Assembly (NCBI GenBank): GCA_964194935.1
Contig: CAXMOL010000067.1
Coordinates: 85 to 64,084, forward strand
Direction of reading: 5' to 3'
Origin: an uncultured Kiloniellaceae bacterium
Lineage (GTDB): Bacteria; Actinomycetota; Acidimicrobiia; Spongiisociales; UBA11373
Length of the DNA: 64,000 bases
This document shows positions 677-55,938 of the stretch, piece by piece; position 1 is the stretch's first letter, and every line of letters starts with the position of its first letter. The position numbers and the translations under genes are program-made. The notes under the pieces are model-generated. The model was not told where the DNA came from, did not search any database, and was given only the letters and a program-made list of their open reading frames with translations.

Positions 677-1135
677 TCAGATCTTCGGCGGTGGTATGTA
701 TTTCGCTTTGGTGACCCGGCCGTCGGCGAGAGTGAGTTTCCAGATGGCGGCCTTTTGAATCTCCGTCTTGGGATTGATCGGCGCCCCGTGGGCGGCGAGG
801 TGTCCGACGAGGTTGGCGAGGACATCGCCGTGGGAGCAGATCACCGTGCCCTTCTTGGCAGTTCGCAACAGGGCGGCAGCACCTTCGGGAGGTGCCCCTT
901 CGGAGAGTTCAGGAAGGTCGATATATCCCAGCCCGAGTCGGTGGGCGAGCGGTGCGACGGTTTGCACGCATCTCAGGAACGGGCTCGTGAATATCTGTTT
1001 GGCGCCGTTCTTTGCCAGATACTTGCTGAGTGCCTTTGCCTGGAGCACTCCTTTGTGGCTGATGGGCCGCTTGTGGTCGGGACCCGACCAGTTGGACCGG
1101 TTGCCGGCATGGGCGTGGCGGACGATGTAGATCAA
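677..1135 (-). CDS. histidine phosphatase family protein (SixA-like)
   Basis: 152 aa. N-terminal IVRHAHAG (RHG-type catalytic motif) and distal SHGD. The TTG start overlaps the stop of the upstream ppk-Nudix gene (TTGA). Confidence 0.75.
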   Translation of the reverse strand: MIYIVRHAHAGNRSNWSGPDHKRPISHKGVLQAKALSKYLAKNGAKQIFTSPFLRCVQTVAPLAHRLGLGYIDLPELSEGAPPEGAAALLRTAKKGTVICSHGDVLANLVGHLAAHGAPINPKTEIQKAAIWKLTLADGRVTKAKYIPPPKI

Positions 1136-3615
1136 GTCGGCTCCATCGTCGATCGCAGCAGGGCCCGATCTCGCTCGTAGGAGAGAGCGTTGAGCGCTTT
1201 ACGCCGACTCACCCACCGGATTTCGTCAACCTCATCGTTGGGCACGAATTCTCCGCCGAGCTCGTCCATGGCCCAATACCGGACGATCTTGCGAGTTCCC
1301 TTGTTGTCCACGTATTCGACCGTACCCAGTTCGTCGCCGAGCCCGGCCCGCACACCGGTCTCTTCGACCACCTCGCGCAGGGCCGCATCTGCCTCGGTCT
1401 CTCCCGGATCGACCTTGCCCTTGGGGAAAGACCAGTCGTCGTAGTCGGGCCGATGGACAAGGAGAACTCGCGTTCGACCCTTCTCGGTGAGCCGGGTGAC
1501 GATACCTCCGGCAGCGATGACGACATCGGGCGTCTCCAGTGCCAATTCTGGATCGGGATAGGCGCCTTGTGCGCGGGTGAGGGCCAGGGACTGGAAGCGG
1601 AGGTGCGAGTTGAGTCCTGCCTCGGTGGGGATCTTGGACCAGGTTTCGTCGTTCAACTCCCAAGCCAGGCGATCATCGGCAAACACGACTGCCAGCAGTT
1701 CTTCCATTCGCCGCTTGAGCCGCGGATCTTCGACGGGGACCAGCGCCTCCACCCGGCCTTTCAGATTGCGCGGCATCATGTCCGCCGATCCGAATAGATA
1801 TTCGGCGTCGTCCCCAGCTCCGAATTTGAAAATGCGGGAGTGCTCGAGGTAGCGACCGATAACGGAGCGCACGGTGATGTTCTCGGAGAGTTCGGGGACT
1901 CCCGGCCTGATGCAGCAAATGCCTCGAATGGTGAGCTCGATCCTCGTTCCGGCATTGGACGCTGCATACAGCTCGTCGATCACCTCAGGGTCTACGAGGT
2001 GGTTGATCTTGAACATGATTCGGCCTTTGGCACCGAGTTCAGCTTGAGCCTGGATGCGCTCGATGATTCCGTCGCTGAGCCCCTCGGGGGCCACCAGGAG
2101 ACGCCGGTAGTCGGGCTGGTGAGCGAAGCCGGTGAGGACATTGAACAACTCGGACAGATCAGCGCCGATCTCGTCGCGAGCAGTCAGCATTCCGACGTCT
2201 TCATAGAGGCCGGCAGTCTTGGGGTTGTAGTTGCCGGTCCCGATATGGCTGTAGCGGCGCAACCCATCCGGTTCACGTCGGACGACAAGAGCAATCTTGG
2301 CGTGGGTCTTGAGTCCGACGACTCCGTAGACCACGTGGACACCAGCCTCTTCAAGGATGCGCGCCCAAGTGATATTGGCCTCTTCATCGAAGCGAGCCTT
2401 CAATTCGACGAGCACCACCACTTGCTTGCCGGATTGGGCCGCCGAGACAAGCGAGTTCACGATCGCCTCTTCGCCGCCGAGAGCCGGATCGCCGGGATCG
2501 GCGGTCCGGTAGAGGGTCTGCTTTATCGCCAACACCTTTGGATCGCGCGCCGCGGTGGCGATGAACGCCCCGACCGAGGTACGAAACGAGTCGTACGGAA
2601 GATGAATGAGGATGTCGGATTGGGCGATGCGATCGAACACCGACTCCTTCGCTTCGACATCGGCAAGCTCGGGCTGGGTAGTCGGGCTCCACGGAGCTTC
2701 CTTCAATTCCGGCCGATCGAGTCCGTAGACCGTCCATAGCCCGGCCAGATTGAGTAGGCCCCCTTGGCAGTAGACCTCGCGTGAATCGGTGATTCCCATC
2801 TCGGTGATGAGGAGCTCGAGGACCTCATCCGGCATTTTCTGCTCAACCTCGAGCCGAATCAGGCGAGAGAACCGATGCCTTGTTTGCAGCAGCGCCTCCA
2901 TCGCTTCGAGCAGGTCCTCCGCCTCGGCTTCTTCTACGGCCTGATCGGCGCTGCGGGTGACGCGAAATACGTGGTATCCGACCACTTCGAGCCCTGGGAA
3001 TAGCGACCCGAGGTGGGCACCAATAACTTGTTCTACGGGGACGAGCCGCTCGTCGCTGCTCGCCAGGAACCGGGGGAGAAGGGGAGGGACCTTGATGCGA
3101 GCGAACTGGTCGTTGTCGGAATCGGGGTCGCGGACAATGACGGCAAGGTTCATCGACAGGTTCGAGATATACGGGAACGGGTGTGCCGGGTCTACCGCCA
3201 GCGGGGTGAGCACCGGATAGATCTCTTCTGTGAATTGCGCAGAGAGTTCGCTTCGCTCCTCCGAGCGAAGCTCGTCCCACCCCACGACGTCTATGTCGTG
3301 CTCGGCCAGGCTGGGACGGAGTTCTACTTCGAAGACCCGGTTCATCCGACTGTCAATCGCTTCGATGCGGTCACGGACTGCGTCGAGTTGTTCACTCGGC
3401 AGCAAACCGTCGGCCGAGTGCTTCATGACTCCGGTCGCCACTTGCTCACGTAGCCCGGCCACCCGCACCTGGAAGAACTCGTCGAGGTTGTGGGCGACGA
3501 TCGCCATGAACTTGACCCGCTCGAGGATCGGCAGGTTCGGATCCTCGGCGAGTGCTAGGACGCGCTCTTGGAAGTCGAGGACGGAGAGCTCTCGGTTGTG
3601 ATACCTGGGTGCCAT
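1132..3615 (-). CDS. ppk: polyphosphate kinase 1 with C-terminal Nudix hydrolase domain
   Basis: The N-terminus MAPRYHNRELSVLDFQERVL is typical of PPK1. PLD-like motifs RYSHIGTGNYNPKTA and RYLEHSRIFKFG are present. The C-terminal ~135 aa carry the Nudix box GKVDPGETEADAALREVVEETGV. I moved the start to the ATG at 3615; the 88-codon extension in the ORF track looks non-coding. Confidence 0.85.
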   Translation of the reverse strand: MAPRYHNRELSVLDFQERVLALAEDPNLPILERVKFMAIVAHNLDEFFQVRVAGLREQVATGVMKHSADGLLPSEQLDAVRDRIEAIDSRMNRVFEVELRPSLAEHDIDVVGWDELRSEERSELSAQFTEEIYPVLTPLAVDPAHPFPYISNLSMNLAVIVRDPDSDNDQFARIKVPPLLPRFLASSDERLVPVEQVIGAHLGSLFPGLEVVGYHVFRVTRSADQAVEEAEAEDLLEAMEALLQTRHRFSRLIRLEVEQKMPDEVLELLITEMGITDSREVYCQGGLLNLAGLWTVYGLDRPELKEAPWSPTTQPELADVEAKESVFDRIAQSDILIHLPYDSFRTSVGAFIATAARDPKVLAIKQTLYRTADPGDPALGGEEAIVNSLVSAAQSGKQVVVLVELKARFDEEANITWARILEEAGVHVVYGVVGLKTHAKIALVVRREPDGLRRYSHIGTGNYNPKTAGLYEDVGMLTARDEIGADLSELFNVLTGFAHQPDYRRLLVAPEGLSDGIIERIQAQAELGAKGRIMFKINHLVDPEVIDELYAASNAGTRIELTIRGICCIRPGVPELSENITVRSVIGRYLEHSRIFKFGAGDDAEYLFGSADMMPRNLKGRVEALVPVEDPRLKRRMEELLAVVFADDRLAWELNDETWSKIPTEAGLNSHLRFQSLALTRAQGAYPDPELALETPDVVIAAGGIVTRLTEKGRTRVLLVHRPDYDDWSFPKGKVDPGETEADAALREVVEETGVRAGLGDELGTVEYVDNKGTRKIVRYWAMDELGGEFVPNDEVDEIRWVSRRKALNALSYERDRALLRSTMEPT

Positions 3616-3655
3616 GAAAACGCGGTTGGGGAGCGGAATCGTACCGCGCCGGGAC

Positions 3656-4114
3656 TCAGGCCTCGCCGGCGAAATGGCGTTCGAGATCCTCGATCTTCTG
3701 GATTCGCTTTGCGTGTCGTTCTTCGCGGCTGTACTCAGCGGCCATGAAGGTGATCGCAAGTTCTTCAGCGAGGCGGACCCCGACCACCCGAGATCCAAGG
3801 GCCAGCACGTTGGCATCATCGTGCTCCACGGACTGATGTGCTGAGTAGGTGTCGTGCGCCAGTGCGCATCGAATACCACGGACCTTGTTGGCGGCGATCG
3901 AGGCGCCTGCTCCCGATCCGCAAACGATCAATCCCCGTTCGGCCTTGCCTGAAATGACCGCCCGGGAGACTGCGGCGGCGTAATCGGGGTAGTCGACAGG
4001 ATCGTCGGAATGGGTCCCTAGATCGGTCACGGCGTGGCCTGCGGCAGCCAAGGCGCGGGCCAGTAGCTCTTTGAGTTCGAAACCTGCATGATCCGCAGCA
4101 ATAGCCACTCGCAT
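3656..4114 (-). CDS. rpiB: ribose-5-phosphate isomerase B
   Basis: 152 aa with MRVAIAADHAGFELK and GLIVCGSGAGASIAANK, characteristic of RpiB/LacAB. Confidence 0.9.
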   Translation of the reverse strand: MRVAIAADHAGFELKELLARALAAAGHAVTDLGTHSDDPVDYPDYAAAVSRAVISGKAERGLIVCGSGAGASIAANKVRGIRCALAHDTYSAHQSVEHDDANVLALGSRVVGVRLAEELAITFMAAEYSREERHAKRIQKIEDLERHFAGEA

Positions 4115-42558: not shown

Positions 42559-42643
42559 CAAACTCAGTGGGGCGGGATGCGAGATTGTACCTGGGACCGC
42601 GGAATGTGGACTCAATTGGCGGGTCGTCCCTACCATCGTCGCA

Positions 42644-43423
42644 ATGTCGCTCGATCCTCCATTTCAGTTTCCGGAGGTTGCTCCGGGCGAGGACCTGGTG
42701 CTCTCGGCTTCGACCTTTGTGACGTTTGAGCAGTGCCCTGAGCAAGCCGCCGGTCGGATGCGCGGAAGCTACGGACCGGAATCTCGCAGTTCGTTCGTCG
42801 GTGGCTTAGCTCACCGTATTTTTGCTCGGCATCTGACGTCAGGGCCTATTGCTGATTTCGGTGCCGCCTGTCGCGAGGAGATCGGGGGGAGCATGAACCC
42901 CAAATTGGCTGCTCTTGGTCTTAAGCCGAGCCAACTGGCCGGTGTAATCGAAGATGTCTCCGGGTTGTACGACAGGTTCAAGACTCTGCAGGCAGATGGA
43001 TTTGTCGGAGCCGAGGTTGCACTGGAGTCAGACCCGGCGCCCGGAGTCGTTCTGCGGGGTTCGGTGGACGCGGTATTCGATGACGAGGGTGGCGTCCGGT
43101 TGGTCGATTGGAAGACCGGAAATCTGGGCGACCCCGAATCGCAGTTGGCCTTCTACGCATTGCTATGGGCCATGGAGAAGGGCGAGATCCCGGCTTTGCT
43201 CGAGGCGGTTTCGATCAAGACGGGTGAGCGGAGCGAGTCAGTTCCCTCTCGGGAGCTCGTCGACGACACCGCCACCCGAGCGGCTCAAGCTATCGATGCA
43301 CTCCGCATCTCGTGGGGTTCGGCCGATTCGTTGGAACGGGTGGCCGGACCATGGTGTCGATGGTGCCCGCTGCTCGACGAGTGCTCCGAGGGTCGAGCAG
43401 CTGTTGCGCTGCTCGAAGGTTGA
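42644..43423 (+). CDS. PD-(D/E)XK nuclease, Cas4/RecB-exonuclease-like with Fe-S cysteines
   Basis: N-terminal Cys (FEQCPEQ), GSVDAV, LVDWKTG (DxK), QLAFY (QxxxY) and C-terminal CRWCPLLDEC (C-x2-C-x5-C). Start moved to the ATG at 42644 to avoid overlapping the VanW gene. Confidence 0.75.
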   Translation: MSLDPPFQFPEVAPGEDLVLSASTFVTFEQCPEQAAGRMRGSYGPESRSSFVGGLAHRIFARHLTSGPIADFGAACREEIGGSMNPKLAALGLKPSQLAGVIEDVSGLYDRFKTLQADGFVGAEVALESDPAPGVVLRGSVDAVFDDEGGVRLVDWKTGNLGDPESQLAFYALLWAMEKGEIPALLEAVSIKTGERSESVPSRELVDDTATRAAQAIDALRISWGSADSLERVAGPWCRWCPLLDECSEGRAAVALLEG

Positions 43424-44137
43424 TCAGGCTATTGCCGCAAATGGATCGCCCGACGGTGCGGCTCGAATCAGCTCCGGGGTCGAGATGTCGATGGCCGAAT
43501 CGTCTTCGAATCCGATAGCGAGGAGACTGGCCAGAGCTGCGGCGGCGTCTGGATCGAATTGGGTGCCGGCGCAGCGACGGATCTCGGCAATTGCCAATTC
43601 AGACGCGAGAGCCCGATCGTATGGCCGATCCGAGGTCATCGCGTCGTAGGCGTCGGCGACTTGGACGATGCGCACGGTGATGGGGAGGGTCCTGGCGGCG
43701 ATTCCGTGTGGATACCCCGAGCCATCTAGTCGCTCATGATGCGAGAGAACTGCAGCAGCCACGTCGCGGTGAACGAGGCCGGCAACCAATCGGTGCCCTT
43801 TTTCGGGATGGGTGCGAATCTGGGTCCATTCGCCGCGGTTCAGACCTGCTGGTTTCCAGAGGACCGCTTCGGCCACGCCGAGCTTGCCTATGTCGTGGAG
43901 TTGAGCCCCCAAGTAGGTCCGATCGATCGTTGCGGTGTCGAGACCCAATTCCATGGCGATGGCCGCTGCAACGTGGGCCGCGCGCTGGCCGTGACCTGCC
44001 AGATCCGAGTCGCGCAATCGGACCACATCAATAAGTCGGGCCACCAGCAGTGATGCGGCATCGCCAGCCAGAACATCCCCGCTGGCGGGGCCAGCCGCGC
44101 GGGTGGAGGGGTCGGAGAGGGGAGTGGGTCTATCCAT
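43424..44137 (-). CDS. HD-GYP domain protein (putative cyclic-nucleotide phosphodiesterase)
   Basis: HDIGKLGV and HHERLDGSGYPHG motifs, with no receiver or other sensor domain. The start could be 44137 or 44263; I prefer 44137 because it does not overlap. Confidence 0.75.
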   Translation of the reverse strand: MDRPTPLSDPSTRAAGPASGDVLAGDAASLLVARLIDVVRLRDSDLAGHGQRAAHVAAAIAMELGLDTATIDRTYLGAQLHDIGKLGVAEAVLWKPAGLNRGEWTQIRTHPEKGHRLVAGLVHRDVAAAVLSHHERLDGSGYPHGIAARTLPITVRIVQVADAYDAMTSDRPYDRALASELAIAEIRRCAGTQFDPDAAAALASLLAIGFEDDSAIDISTPELIRAAPSGDPFAAIA

Positions 44138-44139
44138 AA

Positions 44140-44161
44140 GCGGATGCCTGGCGGCATCCGC
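44140..44161 (-). other. intercistronic 9-bp perfect hairpin (GCGGATGCC-GCCA-GGCATCCGC on the minus strand)
   Basis: Read directly. It fills most of the 31-nt gap between the 464-aa gene and the HD-GYP gene and ends 2 nt before the ATG at 44137. Confidence 0.6.
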
Positions 44162-44168
44162 AGCCAGG

Positions 44169-45563
44169 TTACGAGCGGACGCCCTCCGAGCCGCGGCTTT
44201 CCGTCTCGCCCGCGACGCTCCGACACAGCAGACGGTCCAGGTCATCGACCTGACCGAGGACATCGGAGCGGAGGACGCCCAGATTCTCGTGCAGCTTGTC
44301 GAGTGATGTCTTTATGCCGGTGACGGTACGGCGGGCGCCACTGAGCGTCTCGGCTCCATGGCGGATGCGATCGATTCGGTCGGTTACTGCCGCCGTGTCG
44401 AACGCGGCGGTTCCGGCAGCCGAGACAGCGACCGAAGCTGCCGCCCATTGCATCGCTATGGCCGTCATTGCTCCGTCATCCTCGTCGACAACAAGGACCC
44501 GGTCGCCGTAGACATTGAAGTGACCCACCTCGGTTGGGAATGCGTCGCGTCCGGCGATGCACACCGCTGCGTCTGCCGCTCGATTGGTCATGGCATTGTC
44601 GAGTTCGTGGAGTATTCCGCCGCTTCCTGCCAGTGAGATGGTGGCGTGTCTTTTGGCCTCGACGACGATCCGGCGCCCGTCGCTGAGGGTGACGACGAAG
44701 TCGCCGACCTTCGAGGCGGCGGCGAGGTTGCCGGTGGTATTGGTGGTCCGCTCGACGATGCACCCTTTGATGGAGGCTGCCCAACGTCTGAGGTTTGCCT
44801 CGACGACGTCTTCAAACTCTGTGCCGTGGGCGGTGCCGCGTTCTGCTTCGGCGATCCGTGCGGCGTCGGCGGCGCGCTCGCCGGTGATGTCGCGGCGCAG
44901 TACTTCGAATTGCTCGTCGATCGATCGGCTCAGCTTGGCGAATGCAGAATCTCCTGCGTCGATGTCGAGCGCTTCGGAGAGACGCGTTTCAAGTGCCCCT
45001 TCTGGTCCTACCAATTCCTGGAGGCGTTGGACCAGGAGCGTCGCGGTGCTTCCCTCGACTCCAGGATCGAGACGAGCCAGAAAATCTTCGCGCCAGTTGG
45101 TGAACTCTGTGAGTGTTCGAGCCATGATCGATGAGCGCTGTTCAGGATCGAATTGCCTTCCGAGGCTCGACCGGCTGTCGTCGATAATCGAGCGGACGCT
45201 CGTCTCGGCTTCGCTGGTGACCGACTCGAGGAGGCTGCGAACCCTGGCGTCCACCGCAGTGAGGTCGAGTCCTACCCCCATGGAAACCACGCCTTGCGCT
45301 CCGACGCTCAGCATCCGCAACAACAGGTCGATCCGGTCGGCATCCGCGGCCGTCGACAGCATTCCGACAACGGCGGGGTCGGTGACCACGAGACCCTCGA
45401 TGACGACTCGATCGCCATCGAGGTTGACCGCACCGGGGTACTCGATTCGATGTTCGTGCTTCTGCCCGTTCTGCTCCTGGGTCTGTTGCCCATTCTGCTG
45501 CTTGGTCTGTTGCCCATTCTGCTGCTTGGTCGGGGCTCGCATGACATGGATTCCGCTGGTCAT
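44169..45563 (-). CDS. hypothetical protein: Q/N-rich repeat N-terminus, long helical region, restriction-endonuclease-like (E...D...ExK) core
   Basis: 464-aa ORF. TKQQNGQQ x2 plus TQEQNGQK at the N-terminus. Candidate PD-(D/E)XK arrangement EFEDVVE ... VGDFVVTLSDGRRIVVEAKRH. The overall layout is reminiscent of RmuC, but no family is confirmed. Confidence 0.6.
   Translation of the reverse strand: MTSGIHVMRAPTKQQNGQQTKQQNGQQTQEQNGQKHEHRIEYPGAVNLDGDRVVIEGLVVTDPAVVGMLSTAADADRIDLLLRMLSVGAQGVVSMGVGLDLTAVDARVRSLLESVTSEAETSVRSIIDDSRSSLGRQFDPEQRSSIMARTLTEFTNWREDFLARLDPGVEGSTATLLVQRLQELVGPEGALETRLSEALDIDAGDSAFAKLSRSIDEQFEVLRRDITGERAADAARIAEAERGTAHGTEFEDVVEANLRRWAASIKGCIVERTTNTTGNLAAASKVGDFVVTLSDGRRIVVEAKRHATISLAGSGGILHELDNAMTNRAADAAVCIAGRDAFPTEVGHFNVYGDRVLVVDEDDGAMTAIAMQWAAASVAVSAAGTAAFDTAAVTDRIDRIRHGAETLSGARRTVTGIKTSLDKLHENLGVLRSDVLGQVDDLDRLLCRSVAGETESRGSEGVRS
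45467..45538. repeat. 24-bp tandem repeat, two perfect copies plus one degenerate
   Basis: gtctgttgcccattctgctgcttg at 45491..45514 and 45515..45538, with a diverged copy at about 45467..45490. It encodes the TKQQNGQQ repeats on the minus strand. Confidence 0.85.
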
Positions 45564-45653
45564 GTCTGCAACCTACGGTGGGGGTGTGACAGATCTGCAC
45601 GCCGGCATAGCCCGAATCGGCGTGACCGCGGGGTGCGTGGCACAATCGGGGCA

Positions 45654-47093
45654 ATGATCGACCACGCTCCGTCACCAGATCGGTTGCAGCAGCTTGCTTT
45701 GACCTTGGATCGGATCGATCTCAAGACTGCTGGGGCGCTGGCAGAGGTTCGTCGGCGCCGAGCTGCAGTTGCCGCCGGGCAGTATCTGGCCCCGCGTCTC
45801 TCCGAGCCGTCCGACACCATCGTTGTTGCCGTTGTTGGCCCCAGCGGTGGGGGAAAGTCGACGATCGTCAATTCGATAGCCCGACGTCACATCAGCGATG
45901 TGGGCTCGCTGCGACCCACGACCACCGAACCGGTGGCCTGGACGGACGGAGCAGTCCCGCTGACGCTCGACGCACTTCGCTCGAGGATCCCGGGTGGCCT
46001 GATCGACTCGTTGCGTCCGCCTCCCGAGGGCGTAGTGGTGGTGGACACGCCTCCTCCCGACGTCGTGGATGCCGCTGGTGATTCGATCGTCAACCAGATT
46101 CTCGAGGTCGCCGACGCCGTGATATTCGTGGCCGGTGTTACCCGATATGCCGACTCAGACGCCTTTGCCCTTCTCGAACTGGCGGCAGCCCGTCGGCTTC
46201 CGACGGTCATGGTGCTCAATCGACTGACCGGCTCACCGGAGCAGCATCAGGTAATAGCAACCGACTTTGTGGCGAAGCTGGCGGCGCGCCGCTTGGTTCC
46301 TCGTGCTGATCCAGAACTTGTCGCGACCATTGCCGAGGGGAGCATCTCTCCCGGGGGTGGGCTGACGACCGAGGCTGTAGCCAGGGTCACGAAGGATCTC
46401 GAAGCCTTGGCCGATCCGCAATCGCGTCCCGACATCATTGACACGGTCGTGCAGGGCTCGCTGGTTCGACTTCGGGACGATCTCGCTGCGATCCGGGGGT
46501 ACGTGATCGACTCGGCAGTTCGTCGGGTGGAGCTGCTCGATCCGATGCGTTCTATCTACCGGGGCGAAGCTCGTCGGCTGATAGCGGAGGTGCGAAGCGG
46601 CAAGTTCTCGACTTTGCCGGCAGACGACCTGGTCGATGTGCTCGCCTCCGCGGCGACTCGCAGGGCCGGTCTGGCTGCTCGGGCATGCGCCGAGATGTGG
46701 CATGAGTCTGCCCCCGAGATGGTCGAGGGGTCTCCCGACCTGTTTGGGCATGGCGTCGACACGCTCGAAGCAGCTCGTGAGAGGCTCGCCTTCTGGCTGG
46801 CCGAGATCGACGATTTGCCGGGACGGATGTCCGGCAAGCGCTGGGGGCGCCGCAAGCGTCGCCGTCTTGCGCAGGCGCTGCGGATCTCATCGATTGACCC
46901 CCGTTACGTTCCGAAGCGGAAGGTGGCGCGTCGGATCGAGAAGATTCCGGGAATTGTGGACTCGGCGAGGGAGCGATTGGCAGACGAGCTTCGGGGGATA
47001 CTGGCCACCGACGAGCTGCGGTTCGCCGAAAGGCTCGGACCGGCTGTCACCGGAACAACCCTCAGCGATCTTTCGACAGGGGCCTTGACATGA
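45654..47093 (+). CDS. P-loop GTPase, dynamin/HSR1-like, with long helical C-terminal region
   Basis: G1 VVGPSGGGKST, G3-like VVVDTPP, degenerate G4 VLNRL, then ~270 aa predicted helical. Start set at the ATG at 45654 (MIDHAPSP); the ORF-track extension overlaps the divergent gene. Confidence 0.7.
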   Translation: MIDHAPSPDRLQQLALTLDRIDLKTAGALAEVRRRRAAVAAGQYLAPRLSEPSDTIVVAVVGPSGGGKSTIVNSIARRHISDVGSLRPTTTEPVAWTDGAVPLTLDALRSRIPGGLIDSLRPPPEGVVVVDTPPPDVVDAAGDSIVNQILEVADAVIFVAGVTRYADSDAFALLELAAARRLPTVMVLNRLTGSPEQHQVIATDFVAKLAARRLVPRADPELVATIAEGSISPGGGLTTEAVARVTKDLEALADPQSRPDIIDTVVQGSLVRLRDDLAAIRGYVIDSAVRRVELLDPMRSIYRGEARRLIAEVRSGKFSTLPADDLVDVLASAATRRAGLAARACAEMWHESAPEMVEGSPDLFGHGVDTLEAARERLAFWLAEIDDLPGRMSGKRWGRRKRRRLAQALRISSIDPRYVPKRKVARRIEKIPGIVDSARERLADELRGILATDELRFAERLGPAVTGTTLSDLSTGALT

Positions 47094-48286
47094 GCGACAT
47101 CATCACCGTCGTTGAGGGACTCGACTTTGTTGTCAGCCTCGCCGAAGGCCACGTTCATCCTGAGGATCTCGATAGCGCTCGATCCGCCGCGAGTGCAGCC
47201 CGCTCAAGGGCTGGCCATCTCGGCTCGACCATGGTGCTGGCGTTGGTAGGTGGTACCGGGTCGGGAAAGTCCAGCCTGCTCAACGCTTTTGCCGGAGAGC
47301 AGATAGCGTCCACCAGTCCCATCCGTCCGCATACATCTGAACCGCTGGCTTGGGTCCCCGCCGCTGCCGAGCCATCACTTCGGGTGCTGCTTGATCGGTT
47401 GGGCGTCGAGGAACGGGTTTCTCATGAGCTATTTGCCGAGCTTGCGATCCTCGACATGACCGATATCGACAGCATCGCCACAGAGCATCGCGAACGGGTA
47501 GAGCGGCTGATGCCTGAGGTGGACGTTGTGGTGTGGGTGCTGGACCCCGTCAAGTACTCGGATCCATCCTTGCATCGAGCGCTTATCGCACCGCTTGCTG
47601 GTTCGTCGGACCGGGTCATCTTTGTGCTGAACAAGGTCGACAGTCTGGATGAGGAGAGCCTCGATGTCGTCGTCGATCACCTCGGTCGACTTCTCGCTGA
47701 AGACGGTTTCTCGCATCCGGTCATCTTTGAGGTCGCTGCGGATCCGCCCGATTCCGAACCGCGCGGCATGGATGCGTTGACAGCTCACCTGAGTGCTCGC
47801 CTCGATGAGAAGCAGGTGCACGTCGGCAAGATCATCGACGACGCCCGACGTGCTGCTCGGGCTGTGGCCGGAGCAGCCGGCGTAAGCAGATCAGGTTCCC
47901 TTGACTTCGAGGAGCGATGGCTTTCAGTCCGGGAGGCGATCGTCACCGACTTGGTTGCAAGAGGGGGCCCGGCCACGTTCGAGGAAGCGCTGCGCCTCCT
48001 CGGTTTGTTCATCCTGGGCCTATCGACCGACGCTGGTGGCGTGTTCGGGCAGCGAATCCGCCAGACCTTCCGAGAGGAATTGATCGAGGCAGAGTTGGCG
48101 AGTGCGATGCGAGGGGCCGAGACGAGTCCCGTTCCCGGATCGGCAATGGATGAAGGTTTGCAGGAGCGATTTGGGGTGCCCCTGCGCAAGCTGCTGTGGG
48201 AGCGGGCTTCGCTTGCTGCCGTTATCGCCGGCCTGGCTGTCGATGCGATGATGGTCGATGAGAGTCTTGGCCGAACATCTCGATGA
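47090..48286 (+). CDS. P-loop GTPase, dynamin/HSR1-like (second of pair)
   Basis: G1 LVGGTGSGKSS, G4 VLNKVD. ATGA overlap with the preceding GTPase gene. Confidence 0.7.
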   Translation: MSDIITVVEGLDFVVSLAEGHVHPEDLDSARSAASAARSRAGHLGSTMVLALVGGTGSGKSSLLNAFAGEQIASTSPIRPHTSEPLAWVPAAAEPSLRVLLDRLGVEERVSHELFAELAILDMTDIDSIATEHRERVERLMPEVDVVVWVLDPVKYSDPSLHRALIAPLAGSSDRVIFVLNKVDSLDEESLDVVVDHLGRLLAEDGFSHPVIFEVAADPPDSEPRGMDALTAHLSARLDEKQVHVGKIIDDARRAARAVAGAAGVSRSGSLDFEERWLSVREAIVTDLVARGGPATFEEALRLLGLFILGLSTDAGGVFGQRIRQTFREELIEAELASAMRGAETSPVPGSAMDEGLQERFGVPLRKLLWERASLAAVIAGLAVDAMMVDESLGRTSR

Positions 48287-49997: not shown

Positions 49998-50153
49998 ATG
50001 AAGAGAATCTCAGTTGATCCCCGGATTAGTGCCCCGATTGGCGCAATGAACAAGGCTCTGGCCGTGCTGGAGACCCTCGACAGCGTCGTCGTCGAACGCT
50101 GCGCCGAACAGAGCTGTGAGGTGTGCGCTCAGGAGCTCGAAGTCGCCGCCTGA
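49998..50153 (+). CDS. possible small ORF (51 aa) with a C-x5-C-x2-C motif
   Basis: Hand-translated: MKRISVDPRISAPIGAMNKALAVLETLDSVVVERCAEQSCEVCAQELEVAA. Good GC3 in the second half. It is below the ORF-track size cut-off and has no recognisable family. Confidence 0.25.
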   Translation: MKRISVDPRISAPIGAMNKALAVLETLDSVVVERCAEQSCEVCAQELEVAA

Positions 50154-54249: not shown

Positions 54250-55938
54250 CTATTGGTGTTCTTCAATCACCTCGAGAAAAGCCTTCCCATACCTCTCCAG
54301 CTTTACCGGTCCCACACCCGGCACCGCCAGCAGTCCCGCCGCGGTGGTCGGGCGGAGTTCTGTCATCGCCAGCAGCGTGGCGTCGCTGAACACGACGTAT
54401 GCGGGTACCGAACGTTCGTCGGCGATGCCGCGACGAAGCGCCTTAAGAGTTTCGAACAGTGGCGTGTCCCGCAGATCGTCACCCGAGTCGGATGCTGATT
54501 GACCGCTCCGCCGCCCCGGACTCCCAACCTGGCTGACTGTTCCGGCAAGGATGTCTTCGCCGGTGCATATGTGGCACGATTCGCCGCAGTCGTCGATTTT
54601 CTCGCCGAAATATGCGGCCACGGTGCGGTGTCGACACGCTGAGCGATCGGCCCAATCAAACATCACTCTCGTTTGATGACGATGCCGAGCCTCGGTCTCT
54701 TCGCGGGCCGTCATCCGCTCCATGCTGATCACGTCGGCCCAGGAGTAGAACAACACGCAGTCGCTTGTGACCCCGTCCCGGCCGGCGCGACCGATCTCCT
54801 GGTAGTAGCCCTCTACAGACTTGGGCATGTCGCGATGGATGACGTATCGGACGTTTGACTTGTCGATCCCCATCCCAAAGGCCACGGTGGCGCAGATCAC
54901 GTCTACGTCGTCACGGATGAAGGCGTCCTGCACCGCAGTGCGTTCTTCTGCCTGCATACCCGCGTGGTACGCCATCGCCCTGATTCCCAGGTCGCGTAGG
55001 TACTTCGCAGTCGATTCGGCTGATGCCCGTGACAGCGTGTAGACGATTCCGCTCTCACCTTGTCGCGCCAGGCAAAGGCGTCCGATCGACTCCCGCACCT
55101 GAATCCGACGCCCGTTGTGCTCGCCCTTCTTGAGGACGTGAATCTTGAGGTTGGGCCGGAAGAACGAACCCCGGAACCGAACTGCGTCCGATAGACCCAG
55201 TTGGGCTTCGATGTCATCGGTCACTTCCGCTGTAGCGGTGGCCGTGAGCGCCAGCACCGGTACCCCGAAGCGAGCCTTCAGGCCACGAAGATTGCGGTAC
55301 GCGGGACGAAAGTCGTGGCCCCATTGGCTGATGCAGTGCGCTTCGTCGACGGCGATCAAGCGAAGGTCAACGCCTTCGAGCGCCGACCCGACGCTGGCCT
55401 CCAGCCCTTCGGGCGCGGCGTAAACGAGTTCGTACCCACCCTGTCGCATCCGGGTGATCCGCTCATTGCGTTCTGTGGGGTCCAGACTCGAATTGAGAAA
55501 CGTTGCTCGCATTCCGATCTCGCTCAGGCCGTCCACCTGATCTTTCATAAGCGCGATGAGCGGTGACACGACGAGCGTCGTACCTCCCAGAATCTTGGCT
55601 GTCAGTTGGTAGGTGAGCGATTTGCCAGCACCGGTGGGCATGATTCCTACGCAGTCCTGACCCGAGACGATCGCATCGATGATCTCGCGTTGCCCCGGCC
55701 GGAACGATGGGAACCCGAATACTCCTTGGAGAACTCCATCGACTGCTTCGAGCCGGGCGGCGACTATCTCGACGGCGAGCTCACGCAGTGCCGCCACGTC
55801 GGAGCCGACAAACCGTTCTGGTTCGCGGCGCCATGCGCGGCGCAGACCGTCGAGCATGCCACCGGCCAGGGCTGTATCGCCGGCGGCGATAAGGGACCGA
55901 AGCTGCTCGATCCCACTCGACACGGCGATCTCGGGCAT
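54250..55938 (-). CDS. recQ: ATP-dependent DNA helicase RecQ
   Basis: [23 protein letters not shown], Zn-binding cysteines (CRH...CGESCHIC) and a C-terminal HRDC domain. Confidence 0.9.

Follow-up and report, generated by a model that had tools for sequence, protein, structure and literature searches.

We analysed a locus of five consecutive genes, here named a to e, at positions 42644-48286 of a 64,000-nucleotide (nt) stretch of contig CAXMOL010000067.1 (assembly GCA_964194935.1), which comes from an uncultured bacterium placed by GTDB within the Acidimicrobiia (Actinomycetota); the whole stretch is referred to as the window. The locus is probably a composite of genes that are regulated apart from one another and lie side by side in a conserved region of an Acidimicrobiia chromosome; gene c, which encodes a coiled-coil protein, would be inducible by DNA damage. 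A sequence-only reading of this DNA had taken the five genes for one functional unit with a shared control region, which is not supported, given their variable membership, two different and separable promoters and the occurrence of the parts away from each other elsewhere. Its second option, that conserved actinobacterial genes happen to be juxtaposed, agrees better with the class-wide synteny and, as it had also stated, no named system matches the locus, the PADLOC scan included.

Gene content and order of the locus in Acidimicrobiia

Gene a (42644-43423, plus strand, 259 amino acids [aa]; open reading frame [ORF] table and translation) is in stop-to-stop contact with gene b at 43423/43424. 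Gene b (minus strand) occupies 43424-44137 if translation begins at the likely start M43 (at 44137, 237 aa), its ORF being open to 44263. Gene c (44169-45563, minus strand, 464 aa) and gene d (45654-47093, plus strand, 479 aa, ATG at 45654) are divergent and separated by a 90-bp gap (45564-45653), and the stop codon of d overlaps the start of gene e (47090-48286, plus strand, 398 aa) by 4 nt, from which translational coupling of d and e is expected. The locus is flanked by genes for pyruvate kinase and a VanW-PASTA protein on one side, and for a DAGK-type lipid kinase and an MFS transporter on the other. The sequence-only reading had correctly placed all five genes, the gap, the coupling and the ordinary flanking genes, and its domain calls hold as well: a as a stand-alone Cas4/RecB-type Fe-S nuclease (PDDEXK_1 domain, invariant cysteines), b as an HD-GYP protein without a sensor domain (HD_5 match, full HD...HH...GYP signature), c as a protein with an E...D...ExK nuclease-like core (invariant residues, fold matches), and d and e as coupled P-loop GTPases with helical tails (Pfam, model of e).

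We compared c-bearing loci from Acidimicrobiia, comprising 56 genome loci and several metagenome loci, onto which the proteins of the window were mapped. Across 60 or more Acidimicrobiia loci the gene order is conserved, housekeeping genes included, and runs pyruvate kinase, a small ORF, VanW, a, a variable position, c, d, e and, further on, DAGK/MFS. Because the whole neighbourhood is syntenic, adjacency alone carries no functional signal. Membership varies: gene a was found in 41 of 54 loci, and gene b in 14 of 54, only in the sub-clade nearest to the window, its position being taken elsewhere by a PIG-L or an epimerase gene. Two of three loci that were reached from e homologs on long contigs (L065 and L066) lack c while retaining pyruvate kinase, VanW, a, b, d and e, and b faces d directly in both. 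In the clade formed by L025, L027, L031, L042 and L055, the arrangement a(+) c(-) d(+) e(+) is replaced by a(+) c(+) e(-) d(-); separate inversions have turned around c and the d-e pair, each of which retains its own promoter element, so that the divergent region is split there.

These data bear on an alternative in which c, d and e work as a single machine: the two dynamin-like proteins would recruit, regulate or power nuclease c, and a and b would be accessories. Such a machine might be compared with McrBC, as a nuclease coupled to a GTPase, or with the connection of DNA to membrane that has been proposed for the Escherichia coli dynamin-like protein (DLP) CrfC. We consider this unlikely. 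It would account for the adjacency of c to d/e in 50 of 50 assessable c-bearing loci (45 divergent, 5 rearranged), which survives the two local inversions in one clade, and for the short, divergent c-d intergenic gaps; McrC, a GTPase partner protein, is also among the structural matches of c (see below). However, d/e are kept where c is missing (L065 and L066), the promoters of c and d differ in type and are separable, relatives of c elsewhere lack GTPase neighbours and a d/e-type pair in Nonomuraea lacks c, whereas pyruvate kinase, VanW and the rest of the neighbourhood are just as syntenic. In addition, d and e are TRAFAC dynamin/Era-like GTPases, not AAA+ proteins like McrB. Less likely again is a physical partnership in which a damage-induced nuclease c would be positioned or gated by a heterodimeric d/e GTPase; if it were true, this would be a GTPase-nuclease machine of an undescribed type, by which Acidimicrobiia connect the membrane or septum with DNA repair or with processing of the nucleoid. 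Thus, of the neighbourhood conservation by which the idea of a single unit was to be checked, the adjacency of c to d/e was found throughout the assessable Acidimicrobiia loci, but the membership of a, b and c was variable, and relatives of c and the d/e pair were unlinked in other lineages.

Gene c and its family

No match to gene c was found in Pfam (E<=0.1), NCBIfam, PADLOC or PHROGs; comparison with PDB sequences gave nothing beyond coiled-coil noise, and tblastn detected no relatives in phage genomes. A first homology search returned 79 clusters, all of them hypothetical proteins from metagenome-assembled genomes of Acidimicrobiia. In an alignment of 31 homologs, residues E251, G287-D288, E302-x-K304 and N327-R328 were invariant. 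The AlphaFold model of c (pLDDT 77.6) consists of a beta-hairpin (residues 46-60), helices up to residue 264, an alpha/beta core (269-360) and a 60-residue C-terminal helix, and the strands and helices of the core follow the order expected for the alpha-beta-beta-beta-alpha-beta core of PD-(D/E)XK enzymes. The top Foldseek matches in the PDB were all PD-(D/E)XK nucleases, i.e., EndoMS/NucS (5gke), McrC (6ut7_G), Hjc (2wj0), EcoO109I, Can2 and DdmD, with probabilities up to 0.99 and E values from 0.01 upward, and they span only the core of about 100 residues. As judged from the invariant residues and the modelled fold, c is a coiled-coil PD-(D/E)XK protein with predicted nuclease activity.

When the c profile was searched against 1.84 billion representatives, 2119 proteins were recovered at E<=1e-3 and 238 at E<=1e-30. 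One of these relatives, P0251 (4e-47 to the c profile), passes the Pfam family DUF2130 (33.3 bits, threshold 26.7), and another, P0305, gives a weak match to it. Because P0251 passes DUF2130, we regard c as a divergent member of a coiled-coil PD-(D/E)XK group together with DUF2130 and, by architecture, RmuC; the relationship to DUF2130 is transitive only, since just this distant relative exceeds the threshold. Gene c resembles DUF2130 and RmuC in the helical/coiled-coil regions that flank the PD-(D/E)XK core, whereas its own family differs by the N-terminal beta-hairpin and a helical region rich in DP. An RmuC gene of another lineage lies behind the same promoter motif as c (see below), and a hidden Markov model (HMM) of c did not detect this RmuC. 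We know of no defined biochemical mechanism for the DUF2130, RmuC or c-type families.

Full-length homologs of c are also present on three haloarchaeal plasmids (hhalign 99.8%, 2e-27). The homolog on the Halosegnis marinus plasmid NZ_CP119803 (L061) lies near an AddAB-like nuclease/helicase pair and ExoVII, that on Haloferax lucentense pSVX82-3 (L064) near UvrD, AAA, VWA, MBL, DEAD and SNF2 genes, and that on a Salinigranum marinum plasmid (L062) among small hypothetical genes; no GTPase gene was found near any of the three. These homologs point to an inter-domain spread of the c family and to a nucleic-acid-processing context. A homology search seeded with a distant relative, P0240, returned P0240 alone; this full-length homolog lies on another bacterial contig close to trigger factor, ClpP, ClpX and Lon genes, without a GTPase.

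The Q/N-rich stretch of c (residues 14-35, window about 45470-45535, minus strand) is encoded by a tandem DNA repeat, ggtctgttgcccattctgctgctt, in two copies. It varies in length among the closest relatives of c and is missing in more distant orthologs. The Q/N repeats that had been given as a characteristic of c are therefore real but limited to its closest relatives, and the stretch looks like a hypervariable low-complexity insertion, not a feature of the family.

Promoters of c and d in the intergenic region

Upstream of c, at 45570-45591 on the minus strand, there is a predicted leaderless promoter, TGTCACAC-CCCCACCG-TAGGTT, with an N8 spacer, which ends 6 nt before the ATG and has the geometry of RecA-NDp/PafBC-type promoters. 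An alignment showed TGTCACA(C/G)-N8-TA(C/G)(G/A)(T/G)T upstream of c in almost all loci, followed by the ATG after 6-7 nt, and the exact form of the c promoter was observed twice in the window against 0.01 expected. The LexA-independent damage promoter of mycobacteria, RecA-NDp, reads tTGTCRgtg-8nt-TAnnnT (PMC5656591), and PafBC acts through it (PMC6789036, PMC8223512). The element of c is like this promoter in its 8-mer starting with TGTCR, its 8-nt spacer and its TAnnnT -10 hexamer; transcripts of the c type differ in being predicted as leaderless. Within the c-d intergenic regions, neither a LexA box (GAAC-N4-GTTC) nor the strict mycobacterial box TGTC.GTG-N8-TA...T was found, and a generic sigma-70 promoter scan found nothing within the locus. 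To our knowledge, genes of the c type have not been reported as members of the RecA-NDp/PafBC regulon.

The element in front of d is of another kind. At 45638-45646 (plus strand), 7 nt before the ATG of d, lies TGGCACAAT (TGnCACAAT), which resembles an extended -10 and would likewise yield a leaderless transcript. In many loci TG(C/T)CACAATC is conserved at 5-7 nt from the start codon of d, and this also holds for the clade in which d and c have ceased to be face to face. The 90-bp gap is thus predicted to hold two different leaderless promoters placed back to back.

Occurrence of the damage-type motif

A relaxed form of the motif, TGTCR-N11-TAnnnT, has three sites in the window, each of them 6-7 nt before an ATG: those of c, of a 51-aa Cys-rich ORF and of a RecQ helicase. 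In 1.02 Mb of Acidimicrobiia loci, TGTC[AG]-N11-TAnnnT gave 72 matches, 66 of which were placed 6-7 nt before a start codon; these start-proximal sites belong to c in about 50 loci, to a small Cys protein in 12 and to gene a once. The RecQ gene of the window (54250-55938, minus strand; DEAD, Helicase_C, RecQ_Zn_bind and HRDC domains) is preceded by TGTCGGAC-N8-TACCGT-N6-ATG, the promoter extending to 55966.

We also scanned metagenome contigs for TGTCACACCC-N6-TASGKT-N6/7-ATG, which gave 120 stretches (L069-L188), and tallied the Pfam domains of all 80 ORFs that lie downstream and have at least 100 aa. This gave DUF222 (18), HNH (9), LAGLIDADG (7), RadA-type domains (4-5), UvrC, RecA and PDDEXK_1 (2 each), and UvrB, RadC, RmuC and ComM (1 each). 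SbcD-like and Cas4-like nucleases and three c orthologs were also among the ORFs directly behind the motif. The same kinds of targets (recA, uvrB/C, radA and DUF222-HNH) are found in the RecA-NDp/PafBC regulon. From this content of repair genes we conclude that the motif marks an actinobacterial damage regulon, to which c would belong.

The TGTCACA-N8-TAnnnT element could instead serve a different regulator or sigma factor; c would then be either a housekeeping nuclease that is made constitutively or a structural protein without catalysis. In this case one would understand that the 3' half of the 8-mer departs from the mycobacterial consensus and that the commonest other target in the loci is a tiny Cys-rich protein. 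We consider it quite improbable, since the same variant precedes recA, uvrB, uvrC, radA, radC, rmuC, comM and DUF222/HNH genes in metagenomes and recQ in the window, and since the catalytic residues of c are invariant. Hence, we favour the damage-type promoter: a RecA-NDp-type promoter in its TGTCACAC variant, with leaderless transcripts, appears from these sequences to operate in Acidimicrobiia.

The genes behind the metagenome motif also include those of a phage-type integrase and a DNA methylase, and the DUF222/HNH and LAGLIDADG homing endonuclease genes behind it are leaderless. The 51-aa Cys-rich ORF of the window (MKRISVDP...VERCAEQSCEVCAQELEVAA; 49998-50153, plus strand, with its promoter from 49969) is preceded by TGTCACAC-N8-TACGGT-N7-ATG and has no match in Pfam or PHROG. 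ORFs of 44-63 aa with '...VERCP..C..C' and the motif adjoin the MFS gene in 12 other loci, and they are present among the metagenome matches too.

The GTPase pair d and e

Both d and e exceed the cut-offs of the Pfam families Dynamin_N and MMR_HSR1, chiefly across the P-loop. The motifs of d are G1 GPSGGGKST and a degenerate G4, NRLT, and those of e are G1 GGTGSGKSS and G4 NKVD. Sequence and profile searches of the two proteins against the PDB gave only P-loop-level matches to Era, Der and ABC proteins; because sequence searches reach no further than the P-loop, a structure was needed to place the pair. The model of e (pLDDT 87.2, pTM 0.75) shows a GTPase domain (residues 45-225) clasped by helices 4-38 and 227-392, which form a single bundle. 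Its Foldseek matches were Campylobacter jejuni DLP1/DLP2 (5owv), Nostoc BDLP (2j69), the mitofusins MFN1/2, EHD and mycobacterial IniA (6j72), with E values of 6e-9 to 2.5e-7. The GTPase domains of d and e are paralogous (hhalign 97.8%), and d was assigned from its sequence and this paralogy, the structural model being that of e. Taken together, domain matches and model identify d/e as a pair of short bacterial dynamin-like GTPases.

In bacteria, DLP genes mostly occur as operon pairs (PMC6104087). Compared with paired bacterial DLPs (C. jejuni DLP1/DLP2, Nostoc BDLP, Mycobacterium smegmatis IniA/IniC and Streptomyces DynA/DynB), d and e are alike in their fold of GTPase and helical bundle and in being two paralogs coupled in one operon (PMC6104087). 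They differ in being much shorter (479 and 398 aa versus about 600-700), in the single bundle of e, in having no paddle or transmembrane segment and in the degenerate G4 of d.

In Nonomuraea gerenzanensis, a coupled GTPase pair lies behind a two-component system; the best match of the first gene is the d HMM (2.6e-100) and that of the second the e HMM (5e-63), and no c-like gene was found near the pair. This pair without c suggests that the d/e-type pair arose before these actinobacterial classes diverged and exists independently of c. In one of the loci without c (L066, 6545-8013), d is split into ORFs of 377 and 98 aa, which could reflect a frameshift, early decay or an assembly error.

Genes a and b

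Gene a matches Pfam PDDEXK_1 (9.4e-15) and a PHROG exonuclease (1.2e-15), and it carries the C...CxxCx5C cysteines, D...DxK and QxxxY. Because its four cysteines (C31, C238, C241 and C247) and D142, D155 and K157 are invariant in 43 orthologs, it is identified from its sequence as a stand-alone nuclease of the Cas4/AddB type with four cysteines (Fe-S) and a PD-(D/E)XK core. It is like Cas4/AddB exonucleases in the domain and in all these motifs and differs from them by standing alone; the genes inspected around the locus included neither CRISPR-cas genes nor a helicase partner. A predicted leaderless promoter of its own precedes gene a, with a -10 TACCAT 7 nt upstream of the ATG, and TACCAT/TACGAT is conserved across the loci at 6-7 nt from the start codon. 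No TGTC element was found upstream of a across the loci, with the sole exception of L039, where a carries the canonical TGTCGGTG box. In the window (42560-42643) and the other a/VanW intergenic regions, a conserved (A/G)TTGTAC upstream of a can be taken as a TACAAT -10 hexamer serving the divergent VanW gene. Genes a, c and d, and probably VanW, seem to lack leaders, their -10 hexamers lying 6-7 nt ahead of the start codons.

Gene b matches Pfam HD_5 (1.4e-28) and an NCBIfam c-di-GMP phosphodiesterase region (2e-30), and its translation contains the motifs HDIGK and HHERLDGSGYP, with the complete HD...H...HH...D ligands and GYP readable as LHDIGK, THPEKG, SHHERLDGSGYP and VADAYD, which identify it as a stand-alone HD-GYP phosphodiesterase domain protein. 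Its orthologs are 219-227 aa long, compared with 237 aa for b from M43. Between the c stop and the b start there is a hairpin (44140-44161, minus strand) with a perfect GC-rich stem of 9 bp and a loop of 4 nt, GCGGATGCC-GCCA-GGCATCCGC, which occupies most of the 31-nt gap and may be a terminator without a U-tract, an attenuator or a processing site. No Shine-Dalgarno sequence for b was visible in this gap.

The presence of nucleases, a nucleotide-signal phosphodiesterase and a dynamin pair could also be read as an anti-phage defence locus built around an Eleos/LeoA-like pair, which we hold to be very improbable. A scan with PADLOC, one of the two tools that had been suggested for checking the contig, gave only a weak and partial LeoA match for e (5.6e-6) and DruK matches for a (2e-12), the latter being generic for PDDEXK_1, and no notable match for c or d. 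The relatives of c on haloarchaeal plasmids lie among helicase, AAA/VWA/MBL and SNF2 genes, and Bacillus subtilis DynA contributes to phage defence (PMC12998192). Against a defence role stand the vertical-looking inheritance, the fixed core-genome position across the whole class with housekeeping flanks, the composition without anomaly, the lack of c relatives in the phage genomes searched and the DNA-damage-type promoter of c. The locus is like Eleos (LeoA/LeoBC) in having dynamin-like GTPases, one of them with the weak LeoA match; it differs in that e matches LeoBC at 0.03, which is near noise, in that d has no match, and in its core, vertical setting outside any defence context.

Probable composite organization and its implications

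The composite that we favour would consist of three separately transcribed units in a core housekeeping region, kept together by class-wide synteny. The first unit would be c, for a coiled-coil PD-(D/E)XK nuclease with a tendency to dimerize, whose large family lacks a Pfam model and is distantly linked to DUF2130; it would be expressed as a leaderless mRNA from a LexA-independent damage-type promoter (RecA-NDp, the target of PafBC in mycobacteria). DNA damage would induce c along with recQ, recA, uvrBC, radA and similar genes, and the substrates that its product cuts or processes would be damaged or branched DNA; b would trail c behind the hairpin in one sub-clade. The second unit would be a, a Cas4/AddB-like Fe-S exonuclease gene with its own plain leaderless promoter, and the third d-e, a coupled heterotypic pair of short dynamin-like proteins under a promoter resembling an extended -10. 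By analogy with other DLPs, the d/e pair probably tethers or remodels the cytoplasmic membrane. The sequences and models show the gene models, folds, catalytic motifs, conserved promoter motifs, regulon content and variable membership, whereas we infer that c is induced by damage, which regulator acts on it, what its substrate is and that d/e act on membranes.

Several observations weigh against the composite as proposed. The unbroken adjacency described above argues for some functional tie between c and d/e. The c-type 8-mer ends in CAC or CAG, in contrast to the mycobacterial gtg, and the metagenome matches are taxonomically unassigned, so that the regulon is shown for Actinobacteria-like contigs in general rather than for this genome in particular. 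Gene c itself matches neither DUF2130 (PF09903) nor RmuC. As for d and e, neither has a hydrophobic paddle or a transmembrane segment (maximum KD19, the 19-residue Kyte-Doolittle mean, <=1.65), and e lacks the second (trunk) bundle, for which reasons membrane binding by the pair is an assumption.

With the composite, a candidate new five-gene system is removed and three smaller points remain. Each of the five genes belongs to an already known kind; what is mildly new is the c family with its predicted regulon assignment, the leaderless TGTCACAC-type promoter and the unusual shortness of d and e. A large family without a Pfam model, with 2119 representative clusters found in Acidimicrobiia, on haloarchaeal plasmids and in other bacteria, can be characterized as one of coiled-coil PD-(D/E)XK nucleases, and in Acidimicrobiia it is predicted to be part of a LexA-independent DNA-damage response. 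The TGTCACAC-type promoter would offer a simple sequence readout of the damage regulon in this mostly uncultured class. Moreover, the minimal paired dynamin-like GTPase of Acidimicrobiia (about 400-480 aa), a d-type/e-type pair of which is also present in Nonomuraea (Actinomycetes), could serve as a small model for paired bacterial dynamins.

Composition and other features of the window

GC content and GC content at third codon positions (GC3) of genes a to e are ordinary and similar to those of the neighbouring genes, and horizontal acquisition of the locus was rejected on these grounds. The rest of the window is of housekeeping type (GatAB, LigA, GltX, PPK and others). It includes a polyphosphate kinase with a C-terminal NUDIX fusion (915 aa), encoded at 1132-3879 on the minus strand.

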